In this document: in pieces, positions 1-6,018 of the stretch | Position numbering within the stretch: the stretch's first letter is position 1 | Layout of the letters: the number at the start of each line of letters is the position of its first letter | Notes under the pieces: model-generated | Seen by the model: only the letters and a program-made list of their open reading frames with translations | Database searches by the model: none | What the model was told of the DNA's origin: nothing | Origin: Coriobacteriia bacterium | GTDB taxonomy: Bacteria > Actinomycetota > Coriobacteriia > Coriobacteriales > UBA8131 | Reading direction: 5' to 3' | DNA: 64,000 nucleotides | Assembly: GCA_009783085.1 (NCBI GenBank) | Contig: WRHU01000004.1 | Location: 8,164 to 72,163, forward strand | Program-made: the position numbers and the translations under genes

Positions 1-264
1 CCAGGCAACATTCTCCTTGAAGAGTTTCTGGTGCCGCTGGGGCTCACGCAGGTGGAGTTTGCTCAGCACCTTGGCATACCAGTGCAGCGCATAAACGAGA
101 TTGTGCGGGGCAAACGTGGCGTTACCTCTGCTACGGCATGGCTCTTTTCTGAAGCTCTTGAAACCACGCCGGAGTTTTGGCTTAATCTACAGATGAACAG
201 AGATCTTGCCCTCAGTCGTCCCGAAAAACCAACAAAACCCCTACAAGCAGTATCGGGCTGGTAG
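1..264 (+). CDS. higA: HigA-family antitoxin / XRE helix-turn-helix protein; the 5-prime end runs off the window
   Basis: Frame 1 is open from base 1 (PGNILLEEFLVPLGLTQVEFAQHLGIPVQRINEIVRGKRGVT...EFWLNLQ), a typical HigA/VapI-type HTH sequence. The partner toxin would lie upstream, outside the window. Confidence 0.8.
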   Translation, partial: PGNILLEEFLVPLGLTQVEFAQHLGIPVQRINEIVRGKRGVTSATAWLFSEALETTPEFWLNLQMNRDLALSRPEKPTKPLQAVSGW

Positions 265-279
265 TTAGCTCTTTGCAAG

Positions 280-720
280 CTAACACTCTTCAAAAATGCA
301 AGTTTCCGCTTTTTTGTCGTAACTAATGTTGTAGCTTTTTCCAGCCTCTGCTTCTACTGATACCTTGTTTGGCCCAACGGTAGTTGTGACTGTCTTGTAC
401 ATAACGCCAGGACGTGCCCACGCATACTCGTATTCAACGATGTTCTCGCCTGGAACCAAATAGAAGGCTGGCTTCATGCCTTCACTAAATAAAACAGGAG
501 CGGCACCATTGATACTCAGCGGAGTAAAGGTACCTGTGGTTGCACCTTTTATGATTGCTTTTGCGGCATCCGGATGTTCGCTTAAAAAGGTCTGAACATC
601 TCCTTTAATCTTTTTGGAACGAAAGACCATGTATATTGCCCAAGCAACAATAGCAACAGCAATAAAGATTATGGAATACTTACCAGGACCACTTAAAATA
701 GTTTCAAAAAAATCAGGCAT
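280..720 (-). CDS. hypothetical single-pass membrane protein
   Basis: 146-aa ORF with an N-terminal TM helix (YSIIFIAVAIVAWAIYMVF) followed by a beta-rich domain. GC is lower than the flanks. Its start abuts the stop of the upstream ORF (721). No family recognised. Confidence 0.5.
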   Translation of the reverse strand: MPDFFETILSGPGKYSIIFIAVAIVAWAIYMVFRSKKIKGDVQTFLSEHPDAAKAIIKGATTGTFTPLSINGAAPVLFSEGMKPAFYLVPGENIVEYEYAWARPGVMYKTVTTTVGPNKVSVEAEAGKSYNISYDKKAETCIFEEC

Positions 721-1170
721 TTACTTACTTCCTTTCATAATTGTTTTTATTTTTTCAGGCTCTGGGTCAGTTACGCCGAGCGTATCCAAGAGCCTGTTAA
801 ACCTACGTGCTCCCAACATGGAACAGTCTATGTTGGTCATTTCTCCATTTGCTTGTGTAACACTAAGTGCGCAGTCACTATCTCCATCCGTTGTTTTGAT
901 GAGCGCAGAAATGCCTACCTCGCTCAAATTAAAGCGATGCTTTTCTTTAGAACCCCTATGCACAGAAAAAGAATCGCCATCAACAACAATCTTAATGTTA
1001 TTGAAAAAGAGGGCAAACAAGATGCTCAATAAAAGTACTGCGATTCCTGCAGCAAGTGCAATTTCCCATCTCAAAAACCAACTCAATATGAGTGCCAAAA
1101 CTGCACCACCTGCCACTCCATATACTATTTCTTTGATTTTGACAAACAAACTGCTTTGATAGACTTCCAT
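721..1170 (-). CDS. hypothetical membrane protein with two TM helices and a PH-like C-terminal domain
   Basis: 149-aa ORF with a hydrophobic hairpin (VAGGAVLALILSWFL / LAAGIAVLLLSILFALFF) followed by a soluble domain. It is adjacent to 280..720 with no gap, and an AT-rich promoter region lies upstream (1200-1480). Confidence 0.5.
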   Translation of the reverse strand: MEVYQSSLFVKIKEIVYGVAGGAVLALILSWFLRWEIALAAGIAVLLLSILFALFFNNIKIVVDGDSFSVHRGSKEKHRFNLSEVGISALIKTTDGDSDCALSVTQANGEMTNIDCSMLGARRFNRLLDTLGVTDPEPEKIKTIMKGSK

Positions 1171-1514
1171 ACGTGCCTCTCTCCAAAAAAAAAAGCTCTC
1201 CCACCACAGAGGGCTGCAGCTAAGTAGCTTAGTTTCATAAATCTATTTCAGAATAAATATTGACTTCCCTCACCTTTGCATTTTTGATAAGAAAGAATTA
1301 TTTACAACTCTATAATAACACAAATAGAGGAAATAAATCTGTATTTATGATGTTTTACTATAAAGATGCGTATTAAATGTGTTTTTGCGTTAGATTGTCA
1401 ACAAATGAATAAGCGTTGCTATTGCCTTTTTATAGCTATACTAGTATAGTGTTATAGTTGTGGTGCTTGTCAGAACGGGTTCGCCTCTATCTGCATACAG
1501 AAGGGAGGTGAAAC

Positions 1515-1637
1515 ATGGACACACAATCGATACTGGTGGCAGTTGCGGGCTTGCTCGTGGCGCTAGCGGCGGTCGGTGATGTTGTGTTTAAGTTCTGGCG
1601 TGAGAGCCGGAATAACAAGAAGCGTCCACGTAAGTAG
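1515..1637 (+). CDS. candidate small hydrophobic peptide (40 aa), type I toxin / holin-like; not in the supplied ORF track
   Basis: ATG at 1515 lies 6 nt after GGGAGG (1503-1508). Product is MDTQSILVAVAGLLVALAAVGDVVFKFWRESRNNKKRPRK: one TM helix plus a basic tail. A TTGCCT-17-TATAGT promoter-like pair sits at 1422-1450. Confidence 0.35.
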   Translation: MDTQSILVAVAGLLVALAAVGDVVFKFWRESRNNKKRPRK

Positions 1638-1760
1638 ACGCTTCCAAACATTTCGGCGAACCCGTCAGGCTCCCTAAGCCTAGCTGGCGGGCACCGCACG
1701 TATTAGTATAACACCAATCATTCCTATTTTCTCTGCCGATTTTTGACAAAAAGAAAGCAG

Positions 1761-3491
1761 CTATTCCTTTCCTACCCGGGCATCTTGAACCATCTTGGCA
1801 ACGGTTGCAGCCACAGTATCAAGCGGGATTTCTTGGCGCTCGCCCGTGGCACGCTCCTTAAACTCAACCACCCCAGACTCAAGCCCTCGTTTGCCTACAA
1901 TAAGCTGATACGGCCAGCCAATGAGATCGGCATCATTAAACTTAACGCCCGCACGCTCTGCTCGGTCGTCAAAGGCTACTTCAATGCCCGCCGCACACAG
2001 ATCCTCGGCAAGCGAAAGCGCCGCTGGCTCAACCAGTTCATCGCCCGCTGCCAAAGGAATAACCACTACCTCGGCAGGGCACACGCTCACAGGCCAGATA
2101 ATCCCCTGCTCGTCATAATGCTGCTCAACCACAGCGGCAAGACTGCGTGTTACGCCCCAGCCGTAGCAACCCATAACAAAGGGCTTCTCGGCGTTATCCT
2201 CGTCCATGTAGCGGGCTTGCATGGCCTCAGAATACTTGGTTCCCAACTGAAAGACCTGCCCTACCTCAATGCCACGTGCTGCGGTAAGTGCCTTGCCACA
2301 AGCGGGGCAACCGTCACCCTCGCGAGCCTCAATAAGCTCTGCCCACTGCGTTATCTCAAAATCGGTGCCGAGCGTAGCACCCACATAGTGATAGCCCTCC
2401 TCATTGGCACCGCATATCCACTGCGGCAACTCTTTAAGAGAAGCATCGGCGTAGACCTGCACGTCTTTGGATAAACCAACAGGCCCCAGATAGCCCTTAA
2501 CAAGTCCAGCTTTTTTGATTTCCTCATCATCAAGCAAGGTAAAGCTGCCGAGAAGATTTGCTGCTTTAGTTTCGCTCAGCTCGTGATTTCCCGGAACAAA
2601 AAGTATGGTGGTACGGTCTTGTCCATCGCGTCCGCACAAGGCTTTGACGCAAGAAGCCTCGTTTACCTTGAGATAGGCAGCTACATCAGCTATTGCCTCG
2701 GTATTGGGAGTGGCAACCTTTTCAAAAGCTACGGCGTGGGATTTAAGCGCCACCTGAGCATTTGCCACCTCAACATTGGCAGCAAAACCGCAGTCGCAAT
2801 ACAAAATGCCTGCTTCGCCCGTTTGCGCCAGTGCCATGAACTCAACGGAGGTTTGTCCGCCAATCTGTCCAGAATCAGCCTCTACACCACGCCAAACAAG
2901 CCCCAGACGGTGGCAAATACGCCCATACGCCTGTGCTTGCGCATCATAGTGTTCTTGCAAGCACTCCTGAGAGGCATGAAAACTGTAGGCATCTTTCATC
3001 AAGAACTCACGCCCACGCAGCAAGCCAAAACGAGGGCGCACCTCGTCGCGATACTTCCAGTGCATGTGATAGAGCGAAAGCGGCAGCTCTTTATAACTTC
3101 TCAACTCGTTACGGGTAAGCGCCGTGATAAGCTCCTCGTGTGTGGGCCCGAGCGCATAGCAATTCTCGTGACGGTCGGTAAGGCGCATGAGCTCAGGACC
3201 ATAGACGTCCCAACGCCCGCTCTCATGCCACAGCTCGGCAGGTTGCAAAATGGGCATGAGCAGCTCTTGGCAGCCAATAGCGTCCATTTCCTCCCTAATA
3301 ATCTGTTCAATTTTACGGAGCACACGATACCCCAGGGGCAAAAAGGCATAAATGCCGGAGCTAATGCGACGCATCATGGCAGCACGCAACAAAAGACGGT
3401 GCGAGGCTATCTCGGCATCAACAGGATCCTCTTTGAGAGTTGGACTATACAGAGTGCTCAAGTGGGTAATTTTTGGGTTTATGAGGGGCAC
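1761..3491 (-). CDS. proS: proline--tRNA ligase (bacterial type with INS editing domain)
   Basis: 576 aa; N-terminus LYSPTLKEDPVDAEIASHRLLLRAAMMRRISSGIYAFLPLG. Class II core and anticodon-binding C-terminus. GTG start with an AAGGAG SD 7 nt upstream. Confidence 0.95.
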   Translation of the reverse strand: MPLINPKITHLSTLYSPTLKEDPVDAEIASHRLLLRAAMMRRISSGIYAFLPLGYRVLRKIEQIIREEMDAIGCQELLMPILQPAELWHESGRWDVYGPELMRLTDRHENCYALGPTHEELITALTRNELRSYKELPLSLYHMHWKYRDEVRPRFGLLRGREFLMKDAYSFHASQECLQEHYDAQAQAYGRICHRLGLVWRGVEADSGQIGGQTSVEFMALAQTGEAGILYCDCGFAANVEVANAQVALKSHAVAFEKVATPNTEAIADVAAYLKVNEASCVKALCGRDGQDRTTILFVPGNHELSETKAANLLGSFTLLDDEEIKKAGLVKGYLGPVGLSKDVQVYADASLKELPQWICGANEEGYHYVGATLGTDFEITQWAELIEAREGDGCPACGKALTAARGIEVGQVFQLGTKYSEAMQARYMDEDNAEKPFVMGCYGWGVTRSLAAVVEQHYDEQGIIWPVSVCPAEVVVIPLAAGDELVEPAALSLAEDLCAAGIEVAFDDRAERAGVKFNDADLIGWPYQLIVGKRGLESGVVEFKERATGERQEIPLDTVAATVAKMVQDARVGKE

Positions 3492-3508
3492 GGTGGTTCT
3501 CCTTGGGT

Positions 3509-3577
3509 CGGTTGGTGGGTCAAACGGTTAATGGTCAAGCGGTTAATGGTCAGACGGTTAATGGTCAAACGGTCAAG
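3509..3577. repeat. 15-bp tandem repeat (CGGTTAATGGTCAAR), about 4.5 copies, filling the ispG-proS spacer
   Basis: Units read directly at 3525-3539, 3540-3554 and 3555-3569, with degenerate copies at 3509-3524 and 3570-3584. Confidence 0.9.
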
Positions 3578-3579
3578 CG

Positions 3580-4710
3580 TTAGTCAAGTTTTGCTATCTC
3601 GTCAAACAAGGCATCAACAATCTCGCTTTCTGAAACAGTATAAAGCACTTCTCCTTTAGAAAATATTGCACCTTTGCCTAAACCGCAGGCAACGCCAACG
3701 TCTGCCTCACGCGCCTCGCCGGGCCCGTTAACTACACAGCCCATAACGGCAACCGCAAGCGGTTTTTTGATGGTCTGCAAACGCTCGTCAACGGCAAGCG
3801 CAAGCGACTGAAGGTCAACCTGACACCTGCCGCAGGTGGGACAACTGATAAGCTCGGGCGTGCGGCGGCGCAAGCCCACCGCTGCCAAAATATCCCAGGC
3901 AACACGTACTTCCTCAGCAAGCGGAGCGGTAAGCGAAACACGCAAGGTGTCGCCAATGCCCTCATACAAAAGTGCGCCAATAGCAAGGGCAGATTTAACG
4001 GTGCCTTGCCGCAGCGTTCCCGCCTCGGTAACACCAAGGTGCAGCGGGATTTCTGGCAATTCATGTGCAAGCAAGCGATAGGTTTCAATGGTAGTGCTTA
4101 CGTCATGCGCTTTGGCAGAAAGCACAATGTCCTTAAAACCACGGGCTTGAAAATGCTCAACAAAGGCTGAGGCAGAGCCCGCGAGTTTCTGTGGTTGAGT
4201 AAGGTCGGTGCGCGCGGCATACTCAGCATCAAGCGAGCCAGCGTTTACGCCAATTCGTATTGGTATGCCGCGCGCACCGCACTCGTCAATAATGGCGTCA
4301 ACACGCTCCATAGACCCAATATTGCCGGGGTTTATCCGCAGCTTTGCCGCTCCACGCTTGGCTGCCTCAAGAGCCAGTTTGTGATTGAAATGAATGTCAG
4401 CAATAACCGGCAGTACCGACTGGGCGCAAATAGACTCAAAAGCATCAAGCGCTTCCTCGTTGGGCACGGCAACCCTGATGAGCTCGCAACCTAACTCGGC
4501 AAGTTCTTCTATGGTTTTACAACACAACGCTACCTCAGTGGTAGGCGTATTGAGCATGGACTGCACGGCAACGGGTGCGCCTCCGCCAATGACAACGGGT
4601 TCTCTCCCGCCAGCCTTTGCAGAGCCTATGTGGACTTGGCGCGTGGAGAGGCGAGGCGTGGACACACTGGCTGAAGCTGCGGCTTGCAGGCGAGAGTTTT
4701 GCGCAGTCAT
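3580..4710 (-). CDS. ispG: 4-hydroxy-3-methylbut-2-en-1-yl diphosphate synthase (flavodoxin)
   Basis: 376 aa; GcpE signatures (VAVQSMLNT, RVAVPNEEA, IRIGVNAGSL, C-terminal CPTCGRC Fe-S cysteines). Confidence 0.95.
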   Translation of the reverse strand: MTAQNSRLQAAASASVSTPRLSTRQVHIGSAKAGGREPVVIGGGAPVAVQSMLNTPTTEVALCCKTIEELAELGCELIRVAVPNEEALDAFESICAQSVLPVIADIHFNHKLALEAAKRGAAKLRINPGNIGSMERVDAIIDECGARGIPIRIGVNAGSLDAEYAARTDLTQPQKLAGSASAFVEHFQARGFKDIVLSAKAHDVSTTIETYRLLAHELPEIPLHLGVTEAGTLRQGTVKSALAIGALLYEGIGDTLRVSLTAPLAEEVRVAWDILAAVGLRRRTPELISCPTCGRCQVDLQSLALAVDERLQTIKKPLAVAVMGCVVNGPGEAREADVGVACGLGKGAIFSKGEVLYTVSESEIVDALFDEIAKLD

Positions 4711-4713
4711 GTT

Positions 4714-6018
4714 TTAGCCCCCAAGAAAATAGCGATGAATGTCCTGATTGGTCAGCACAATAAATAAAAGCAAGAGCAGCAACAGCGCAATAATGCTGAT
4801 GCTGTTCACAATCGCCACCGGAATGGTGCGCCCCGTAACACGTTGAATGGTTTCGATAACAATTTTTCCGCCGTCTAAGGGAGGCACGGGCAGCAGGTTC
4901 ATAAGCCCGATTGAAATAGACAGCAAGCCCGCCAAAAAGATAAAGGGCAAAAATCCGCTCGAAGCGGCACGCTCAGCCTCAACCGCAATTCCCACCACCG
5001 ATGAGGACTGGCTAATAGTTTCACCCGCCGTAAAGGGATTGAGTAAATTGGCGATAAGCTCCGCCGTCATGCCTATTACCATAAAAGTGGTGCCGAGTGC
5101 GTCTATAAAGCTCACCGGCGCAGGCTCAAGCTTGGGGCTGATGCCCACCAGCGCACGTCCGTCTTGTTCCACCAGCGTAATCGAAGCTGTCTTTTTAACG
5201 CCGCTTCTGGTGGTGTAACCAAGCTCAATGGTGTCGCCCGCTTTATGTGTGGAAACAAGCTCTGCAAAAGCAGCCCACTCAGTAAACGATGTTCCATCAA
5301 CGCTCGTAATGGTGTCGCCAGCAATAATTCCCGCCTTTTGCGCCGGTAGGCCTTCGCTCACCGAGTCAATGGTAGTGGTAGCGGCAACCGTGCCGAGCGC
5401 CATAAGTATTATCGAAGTAATCAAAATGCCAAATATGAGATTAAACGCCGAACCACCGAGCAAAAATATCATGCGTCGATACCACGGCATGCCAGCATAA
5501 GTGTGCTTGCGCTCCTCATCTATGTGAGCCGAAGCCGCCTCGTGGCTTGCAACAGGACGCGGCTGCCCCTGTGCATACGCTACACCCTTAACCGTAGCAG
5601 CAGGCATATCGTAGCGCTTGTTGCCCGCTTCGAGCTTGGTAGCTTCAATGGTCATCCAACTAACAAGCGAGTCCAAGGCTTCCACAAGGTCAAAGCCCAG
5701 TGCCTCACTCGATTTGTCAGCCTGAATAGTGGTAAGTGAGCCCCAATACGCAAGGTAAGCATACGCTTTGGAGAGATTGGGGTTTTCCGCACCTGTCTCG
5801 CCTGCAACAAGACAATATCCACCCAGCGGAATAGCCGTAACGCCATAGCGCGTTTGCTTGCCCTTAATGCCCAGCGACGGCCCCGGCAGCCCGAGCATGA
5901 ACTCCCGAACACGTACACCCATAAGGCGGGCGGTAAGAAAATGTCCGCCTTCGTGAATAAAAACAATGATGCTAATGAGGATAATTCCCCAAAATATAAT
6001 TGCAACTGCCTGTGGCAT
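4714..6018 (-). CDS. rseP: RIP metalloprotease RseP/RasP (M50 site-2 protease with PDZ domain)
   Basis: 434 aa; HEGGHFLTARLMG zinc motif in TM1, internal PDZ (GLPAQKAGIIAGDTITSVDG), and a C-terminal NLLPVPPLDGG motif. Confidence 0.9.
   Translation of the reverse strand: MPQAVAIIFWGIILISIIVFIHEGGHFLTARLMGVRVREFMLGLPGPSLGIKGKQTRYGVTAIPLGGYCLVAGETGAENPNLSKAYAYLAYWGSLTTIQADKSSEALGFDLVEALDSLVSWMTIEATKLEAGNKRYDMPAATVKGVAYAQGQPRPVASHEAASAHIDEERKHTYAGMPWYRRMIFLLGGSAFNLIFGILITSIILMALGTVAATTTIDSVSEGLPAQKAGIIAGDTITSVDGTSFTEWAAFAELVSTHKAGDTIELGYTTRSGVKKTASITLVEQDGRALVGISPKLEPAPVSFIDALGTTFMVIGMTAELIANLLNPFTAGETISQSSSVVGIAVEAERAASSGFLPFIFLAGLLSISIGLMNLLPVPPLDGGKIVIETIQRVTGRTIPVAIVNSISIIALLLLLLLFIVLTNQDIHRYFLGG

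Follow-up and report, generated by a model that had tools for sequence, protein, structure and literature searches.

The known type I toxin families belong nearly all to Pseudomonadota or Bacillota, and each of them is narrowly distributed (PMC5367252, PMC8594479). Gram-positive type I families are known to use antisense RNAs that overlap the 3' end of the toxin message (PMC8594479). By binding at the 3' end of the bsrG mRNA, SR4 extends the helix covering the Shine-Dalgarno sequence, and it promotes decay of the transcript as well (PMC3834814). The hok and aapA mRNAs feature a long-distance interaction between their 5' and 3' ends, with a fold that is conserved and supported by covariation (PMC6733600). 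A locus with likenesses to both groups was analysed in a 64,000-nucleotide (nt) stretch of DNA, hereafter the window, from a Coriobacteriia bacterium (phylum Actinomycetota; assembly GCA_009783085.1, contig WRHU01000004.1, positions 8,164 to 72,163 of the forward strand). It is a stand-alone module of ~250-300 nt coding a 40-residue peptide, and comparison of its homologues gives it a probability of roughly 60% of being a new type I toxin-antitoxin family in Coriobacteriia. A search of the accessible literature found no report of toxin-antitoxin systems of type I for Coriobacteriia or Actinomycetota.

The peptide MDTQSILVAVAGLLVALAAVGDVVFKFWRESRNNKKRPRK is coded by an open reading frame (ORF) on the plus strand (positions 1515-1637) and is composed of one hydrophobic helix followed by a tail rich in Lys and Arg. 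AlphaFold2, run with the family alignment, predicts a single helix spanning residues 3-36 (mean predicted local distance difference test score, pLDDT, 84.8). The first-pass annotation of the window had singled out this ORF as a candidate type I toxin-like locus, and the sequence elements that it listed are all found in place: the 40-codon frame with the quoted sequence, the motif GGGAGG (1503-1508) 6 nt upstream of the ATG at 1515, the promoter-like pair TTGCCT-17-TATAGT (1422-1450), an 11-nt complementarity between the 5' and 3' untranslated regions (UTRs), and an extended -10-like box on the opposite strand. The candidacy itself gains support from the conservation of the peptide, of the complementarity and of the antisense box, and from a genomic setting with mobile-element and toxin-antitoxin genes.

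A word-indexed search retrieved one identical protein, a homologue with 70% identity (P0002) and a truncated form (P0003). An exhaustive HMMER search over 1.84 billion representatives combined with a profile search extended the family to ~23 sequence clusters of 38-47 amino acids (aa), with the consensus MDxxxILxAxAxxLxALAAVGxVVFKFWRExRRDxKKRPRK. All sources are metagenomes, several of them from termite gut, plus one NCBI metagenome-assembled genome (GCA_002293265.1). A scan of metagenomes with a DNA pattern returned 81 stretches, among which 5 are true family members and 3 of these are new loci. The comparisons below use 12 loci: the window, eight homologues found through the peptide only (L001 and L021-L027) and the three loci found through the DNA pattern (L036, L043 and L067). 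This pattern left the 5' UTR, the helix called P1 below and both promoters unconstrained.

The ORF is open in the same register in all 12 loci, with a length of 40-41 aa, and each locus keeps the ATG and the Shine-Dalgarno sequence. Pairwise differences among the 12 loci amount to 829, 795 and 1426 at first, second and third codon positions, a third-position excess. The window and L001, which is 70% identical, are separated by nine synonymous codon changes, their differences by codon position being 7, 5 and 15. Replacements within the predicted helix exchange one hydrophobic residue for another. This substitution pattern indicates coding constraint on the putative peptide, and the loss of conservation that the first-pass annotation named as fatal to its proposal is not what the family of ~23 clusters displays. 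The conserved unit goes beyond the ORF: the entire layout of the module is kept in the 12 loci.

The second line of evidence is the fold of the predicted mRNA. The region 1457-1700, whose folding had been proposed earlier, has in RNAfold a minimum free energy of -117.5 kcal/mol compared to -83.9 +/- 4.8 kcal/mol for 200 dinucleotide shuffles (z = -7.0), none of which equals the value of the window; the L001 homologue gives z = -6.9. The structure is closed end to end by two helices of ~26 base pairs (bp) in all. P1 joins positions 1459-1473, at the extreme 5' end of the predicted mRNA, to 1684-1698 (15 bp), a 3' strand assigned by RNAfold, RNAalifold and pair counts. P2 joins ACGGGTTCGCC (1475-1485) to its perfect complement GGCGAACCCGT (1655-1665; 11 bp). 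The 11-nt match noticed in the first pass is P2, fully complementary as described and in fact the core of a far larger structure than was then recognized. The 3' strands of P2 and P1 are separated by an insert (1666-1683) that folds into a small local hairpin and is left out of the pairing with the 5' UTR; all 12 loci have such an insert, 8-20 nt long. The stop codon lies in the loop of a further hairpin of 12 pairs (1618-1645), which is also scored as a terminator-like site on the minus strand. When extended to the 19 nt that are shared with L001, each arm of the end-pairing occurs once in the 64-kb window at up to 3 mismatches, while 0.01-0.03 occurrences are expected by chance.

P1, P2 and the stop-codon hairpin are recovered de novo by RNAalifold from both the 9- and the 12-sequence alignments. 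In the latter, 97.7% of the cells are paired and nine pairs carry compensatory changes, in 22 cells, a level reached by 0 of 500 shuffles; sliding the partner strand by 1-3 columns, as a control, leaves 33-52% of the cells paired. The 12 pairs scored in P1 are 97.2% paired and three of them have a compensatory change. P2 (12 pairs) is 97.9% paired, one pair appearing as GC, UA, AU and GU in different loci, and the stop-codon hairpin (8 pairs) is also 97.9% paired, with one pair that is found as CG, GC, AU and UA. The flanking complementarity is thus maintained through compensatory changes rather than lost among relatives, loss being the outcome that the first pass had set against its own proposal. 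Two adjacent U.G wobbles in P1, present in 9 and 11 of the 12 loci, pair only in the plus-strand RNA, which rules out a repeat maintained at the DNA level or a minus-strand structure. These conserved wobbles show the plus-strand RNA, as predicted here, to be the structured strand.

The third conserved component is a promoter-like box facing the 3' end of the module. The minus strand carries the extended -10 sequence TGTTATACT (1713-1705) with a predicted antisense start at ~1698. Counted from the complement of the final P1 base, a TGnTAnnnT box lies at a fixed distance, 4-6 nt upstream, both in the nine loci that were scanned and, by eye, in the three additional ones, hence in 12 of 12; its TG, TA and final T never vary, while the remaining positions differ among loci. 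In L021 and L024 the antisense site was also picked up, independently, by a promoter scan. The putative sense promoter (plus strand, 1422-1450) is composed of the -35-like TTGCCT, a 17-nt spacer and the -10 element TATAGT, with a predicted start at ~1457-1458. The promoter scan yielded two sites where 1.5 are expected by chance, so the scan taken alone carries no weight. In 9/9 loci examined, a TAnnnT box precedes the start of P1 by 4-8 nt, which places the first bases of the mRNA in the 5' strand of P1; the -35 region is not conserved. Most sense promoters have no TG extension, and this suggests a stronger promoter on the antisense side, as is usual for toxin/RNA-antitoxin pairs. A conserved TTTGACAAA was considered as the antisense -35 element and discarded for its wrong spacing, measured by eye as 33 nt for the window and 22 nt for L001. 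Downstream of the module the near-palindrome TTTTTGACAAAAA (1739-1751) is kept in the two closest homologues, the L001 equivalent being TGTTTGACAAACG (~5215-5230), also at a spacing unsuited to an antisense-promoter -35.

Transcription from this promoter up to the terminator-like hairpin would yield a cis-antisense RNA of ~90 nt (minus strand, 1609-1698), the candidate antitoxin, whose sequence complements the final 8-9 codons as well as the 3' UTR of the predicted mRNA. The corresponding antisense-strand segment (1700-1600) folds with -45.2 kcal/mol (z = -3.8). The terminator-like hairpin was detected on the minus strand in the window and in L021, and its U-rich tail is supplied by the Lys codons of the peptide. 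The putative antisense RNA is the exact complement of the 3' strands of P1 and P2, so its 5' part is nearly identical to the 5' UTR arms of the mRNA, and competition between the two for the 3' UTR is inevitable. The duplex between 5' and 3' UTRs is computed at -33 to -49 kcal/mol and that between the antisense RNA and the 3' UTR, over the same span, at -76 to -105 kcal/mol; these calculated energetics favour the antisense RNA. The insert at 1666-1683 is complementary only to the antisense RNA, making it a candidate toehold.

Translation of the peptide might be controlled by the same set of pairings. The Shine-Dalgarno sequence GGGAGGUGA (plus strand, 1503-1511) contains a GGTGA that is invariant in the 12 loci. 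Its segment GGAGGUGA (1504-1511) can pair with a CU-rich anti-Shine-Dalgarno element, UCGCCUCU (1481-1488), that adjoins P2 and shares 4-5 nt with the 3' portion of the P2 5' strand. The anti-Shine-Dalgarno helix and P2 are computed to be mutually exclusive, the former being formed once the 3' UTR is masked, a condition that mimics either the nascent transcript or a bound antisense RNA. On masking, the Shine-Dalgarno sequence drops from a predicted unpaired probability of 0.11-0.61 to one of 0.00-0.04 in seven of nine loci; the exceptions are L021, at ~0.01 either way, and L026, which stays at 0.36.

A model can be drawn from these features. The plus strand would be transcribed into a short mRNA for the 40-aa peptide, whose transmembrane helix and polybasic tail are presumed to make it membrane-active and toxic, and the nascent message would be translationally closed. 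Synthesis of the 3' UTR would then allow P1 and P2 to pair the ends, giving a closed, nuclease-resistant mRNA in which the anti-Shine-Dalgarno element is partly withdrawn and the ribosome-binding site partly freed. From the extended -10 beyond the 3' arm, the minus strand would produce the ~90-nt RNA ending at the stop-codon hairpin. It may take the unpaired insert that separates the arms as its nucleation site and from there displace the 5' UTR, creating a long perfect duplex that is a likely RNase III substrate, while the freed anti-Shine-Dalgarno element re-closes the ribosome-binding site. Production of both RNAs, the direction of the translational effect, the role of RNase III and toxicity are the inferred parts of this scheme. 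In its full form, it describes the first type I family of Actinomycetota, working by a three-strand switch not described for other families: the antitoxin mimics the 5' UTR, end-pairing draws the anti-Shine-Dalgarno element off and so constitutes the translation-competent state, and binding at the 3' end both shuts translation and generates the RNase III substrate. This complete version is put forward tentatively and is more doubtful than the assignment to type I systems. Alternatively, end-pairing itself would be the off state, as in a hok-type lock. This is conceivable because the accessibility predicted for the Shine-Dalgarno sequence of the closed form ranges widely among loci (0.01-0.61), a spread that leaves the direction of the switch uncertain.

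The arrangement can be set against the two groups of systems introduced above. Convergent transcription, with an antisense RNA running over the ORF end and the 3' UTR, is shared with bsrG/SR4, txpA/RatA, bsrE/SR5, yonT/SR6 and SprG/SprF, the antisense RNA of the candidate being a predicted one. These Gram-positive systems have in common with it a small hydrophobic peptide and a Shine-Dalgarno sequence sequestered within the mRNA. The remote effect exerted from the 3' end on the Shine-Dalgarno sequence in bsrG/SR4 follows the same logic as the model proposed for the three-strand switch. Neither peptide nor RNA homology to these families was detected in Rfam, Pfam or NCBIfam, and the hosts are Coriobacteriia (Actinomycetota) instead of Bacillota. 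In the candidate, the predicted antisense target is one strand of a 5'-3' end-pairing and the antisense RNA would compete with the 5' UTR, a combination that we have not seen described elsewhere.

Like hok/Sok and aapA/IsoA, the candidate has a 5'-3' long-distance interaction in the full-length mRNA, here P1 and P2, and CU-rich anti-Shine-Dalgarno hairpins that can act during mRNA synthesis. In hok/Sok and aapA/IsoA, by contrast, the antisense RNA is directed at the 5' portion of the mRNA, whereas the predicted antisense RNA of the candidate covers the 3' arm. End-pairing in these systems hides the ribosome-binding site until the 3' end is trimmed; in the candidate it overlaps the anti-Shine-Dalgarno element and not the Shine-Dalgarno sequence. 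The peptide is unrelated to Hok/Gef and AapA, no member of the family having a match in Pfam or NCBIfam. It resembles Fst/Ldr/PepA1-like toxins in having one transmembrane helix, an aromatic residue and a basic tail (FKFWRESRNNKKRPRK). We take this tail to be akin to ...SYWLSRRNTK of PepA1 and ...WWRNRK of Ldr, as a lead and not as a test.

The genomic distribution of the module brings additional information. The neighbours differ at every locus and are often mobile-element or toxin-antitoxin genes: HigBA in the window and L003, a relaxase and Fic in L023, an IS66 transposase in L025, PIN/RHH/nucleotidyltransferase genes in L026 and Phd/YefM in L027. One termite-gut contig (L043) carries a full module (minus strand, 902-653) and the start of a second one (91-1), ~810 nt apart. 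L036 looks like a continuation of L043: its downstream flank is similar to the flank upstream in L043, and the assembly was probably interrupted within a tandem array. Strain L002 (SRR14710908), near-identical to that of the window with 2 flank mismatches, has a clean 180-nt deletion that corresponds to window positions 1375-1554 and maps to L002 4848/4849. With it the strain has lost the sense promoter, 5' UTR, start codon and first 13 codons, and it retains the 3' arm and the antisense promoter. Varied accessory neighbours, tandem copies and the decay seen in L002 are indirect signs of a module that may be selfish or toxic.

Several observations weigh against a type I toxin-antitoxin family. 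The search for known toxin families suggested by the first-pass annotation was negative, as the peptide is unmatched in Pfam, NCBIfam and PADLOC and fits no known toxin model; compared with the Pfam models of Fst, Ldr and other toxins, no family member gets as far as E = 10. Its sequence retrieves nothing relevant in the Protein Data Bank, where no solved toxin structure was matched. The family is rare: a scan of 185,579 representative genomes (GTDB) with the peptide pattern found no relative, and the 12 matches to a two-arm DNA pattern in the same genomes are all chance occurrences in high-GC actinobacterial coding sequence. The 12 loci represent perhaps six independent lineages. The most divergent member (L017/L018), whose peptide is 59% identical, has no P1 and P2 sequences, and its alternative end-pairing is different in sequence and weak (z = -2.0). 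The helix between the Shine-Dalgarno and anti-Shine-Dalgarno sequences is compatible with 87.5% of the cells and has no covariation support because the Shine-Dalgarno sequence is invariant, and to this must be added the spread of closed-form accessibility given above. The tail of the antisense terminator is U-poor in several loci, and no clear sense terminator was found in the window.

L017/L018 retains the anti-Shine-Dalgarno hairpin and the stop-codon hairpin, and in L021, L023 and L024 a GC-rich hairpin followed by a T-run is seen by eye just beyond the antisense promoter, the terminator scan accepting loops of 8 nt at most. A separate observation concerns the DNA directly upstream of L017/L018, which holds a perfect 20-nt inverted repeat, CTCGGTTTGCTCCAGATCTG and CAGATCTGGAGCAAACCGAG (L018 33-52 and 103-122; in L017 upstream of 5001). 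Its loop is replaced in the NCBI metagenome-assembled genome by a run of N, apparently an assembly artefact.

The best surviving of the rival explanations accepts the architecture as real and gives it another purpose: the peptide would be an ordinary, non-toxic small membrane protein, such as an accessory or regulatory subunit, whose mRNA is stabilized by end-pairing and adjusted by an antisense RNA in cis. Among the non-toxic subunits of membrane complexes, small proteins with one helix and a basic tail are common, and a JGI record labels one member of the family 'cbb3-type cytochrome oxidase subunit 3'. The FixQ match that goes in the same direction (E = 0.035) was obtained for one of 13 members and falls far below the Pfam threshold. 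A complex subunit is also difficult to reconcile with contexts that are enriched in mobile-element and toxin-antitoxin genes and provide no consistent partner gene or operon, with the tandem copies on one contig, and with multilayer occlusion of the ribosome-binding site together with a conserved extended -10 antisense promoter, which are typical of toxic genes. Such a protein is a rather unlikely explanation.

The first-pass annotation had also considered a holin-like peptide. Neither a lysis cassette nor phage neighbours are seen around the module. Four patterns run against viral contigs (IMG/VR) gave zero or chance matches only, and tblastn of the peptide against plasmids (PLSDB) and phages (INPHARED) gave none. 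Comparison to PHROGs returned weak matches driven by the transmembrane segment: 6 of 13 members hit phrog_7793, a family of unknown function, with a best E of 0.004, and one of the 13 matched a holin family (E = 0.044). The phage holin assignment was consequently rejected.

The strength of the structure (z = -7), which spans the ORF, raises the possibility that a structured non-coding RNA or a cis-regulatory element is what is conserved, the ORF being incidental. The codons for the carboxyl-terminal KKRPRK coincide with the stop-codon hairpin, and part of the peptide conservation could thus reflect constraint on the RNA. Retention of the start codon, of the Shine-Dalgarno segment GGAGGUGA and of the 40-41 aa length in 12/12 loci speaks for translation, as do the third-position excess and the hydrophobic-for-hydrophobic replacements in the helix. 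No family of Rfam matches the element: a search of window positions 1-6000 at E up to 1 gave zero hits, and hence none for a toxin mRNA or an antisense RNA. Overall, an incidental ORF appears improbable.

Still less credible is a miniature transposable element with the 11-nt match as its terminal inverted repeat, as had been envisaged in the first pass. The module does occur in unrelated genomic contexts, and a 10-nt direct repeat, TAyTAGTATA, flanks it (1439-1448 and 1701-1710). The conserved unit encloses the arms, and the two promoters are placed outside these; the U.G wobbles conserved in P1 would be A/C mismatches at the DNA level or in the opposite strand, and the window has a single copy. 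TAyTAGTATA was examined as a target-site duplication and dismissed, since it corresponds merely to two near-palindromic -10 boxes and is weaker in L001. Least plausible of all is that the real gene is a leaderless minus-strand ORF of 70 aa (1487-1699) beginning with the GUG at the predicted antisense start, even though leaderless mRNAs are common in Actinomycetota. This frame varies from 6 to 91 codons by locus; five loci stop it early and another lacks the start codon. In this register third positions fall on third positions of the sense ORF, and such a frame is often open by chance.

The window belongs to a metagenome-assembled gut genome, and its ProS, IspG and RseP are identical to the NCBI proteins MCL1890960-62. 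In the window the module is bracketed by a low-GC islet on one side and the end of proS (minus strand, 1761-3491) on the other. The islet (280-1170; GC 0.36-0.42) contains two adjacent minus-strand ORFs coding small membrane proteins of 146 and 149 aa, located between HigA and the peptide module. These two proteins have no match in Pfam, NCBIfam or PADLOC, and their ORFs co-occur with the module only in the window's own species (L002-L004). The proximity to a HigA module and a low-GC islet stated by the first-pass annotation is accurate, the islet adjoining the module and HigB/HigA being found beyond the islet. No tRNA or tmRNA was found near the module. Further along, a 15-nt unit, GGTCAAACGGTTAAT, is repeated in tandem (3518-3573; 3.7 copies, 90% matches) within the 88-nt spacer between the start of proS and the stop of ispG, both on the minus strand.

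Conserved genes of 40 codons such as this one are absent from genome annotations and from curated family libraries. If the assignment to a type I toxin-antitoxin family is true, the type I class extends to another phylum. The module is compact and backed by covariation, and the competition of the mRNA 5' end and an antisense RNA for one and the same segment of the 3' UTR would constitute a testable RNA switch. Such a contested 3' UTR may be useful for understanding how translation is controlled at a distance and for the design of synthetic RNA devices.

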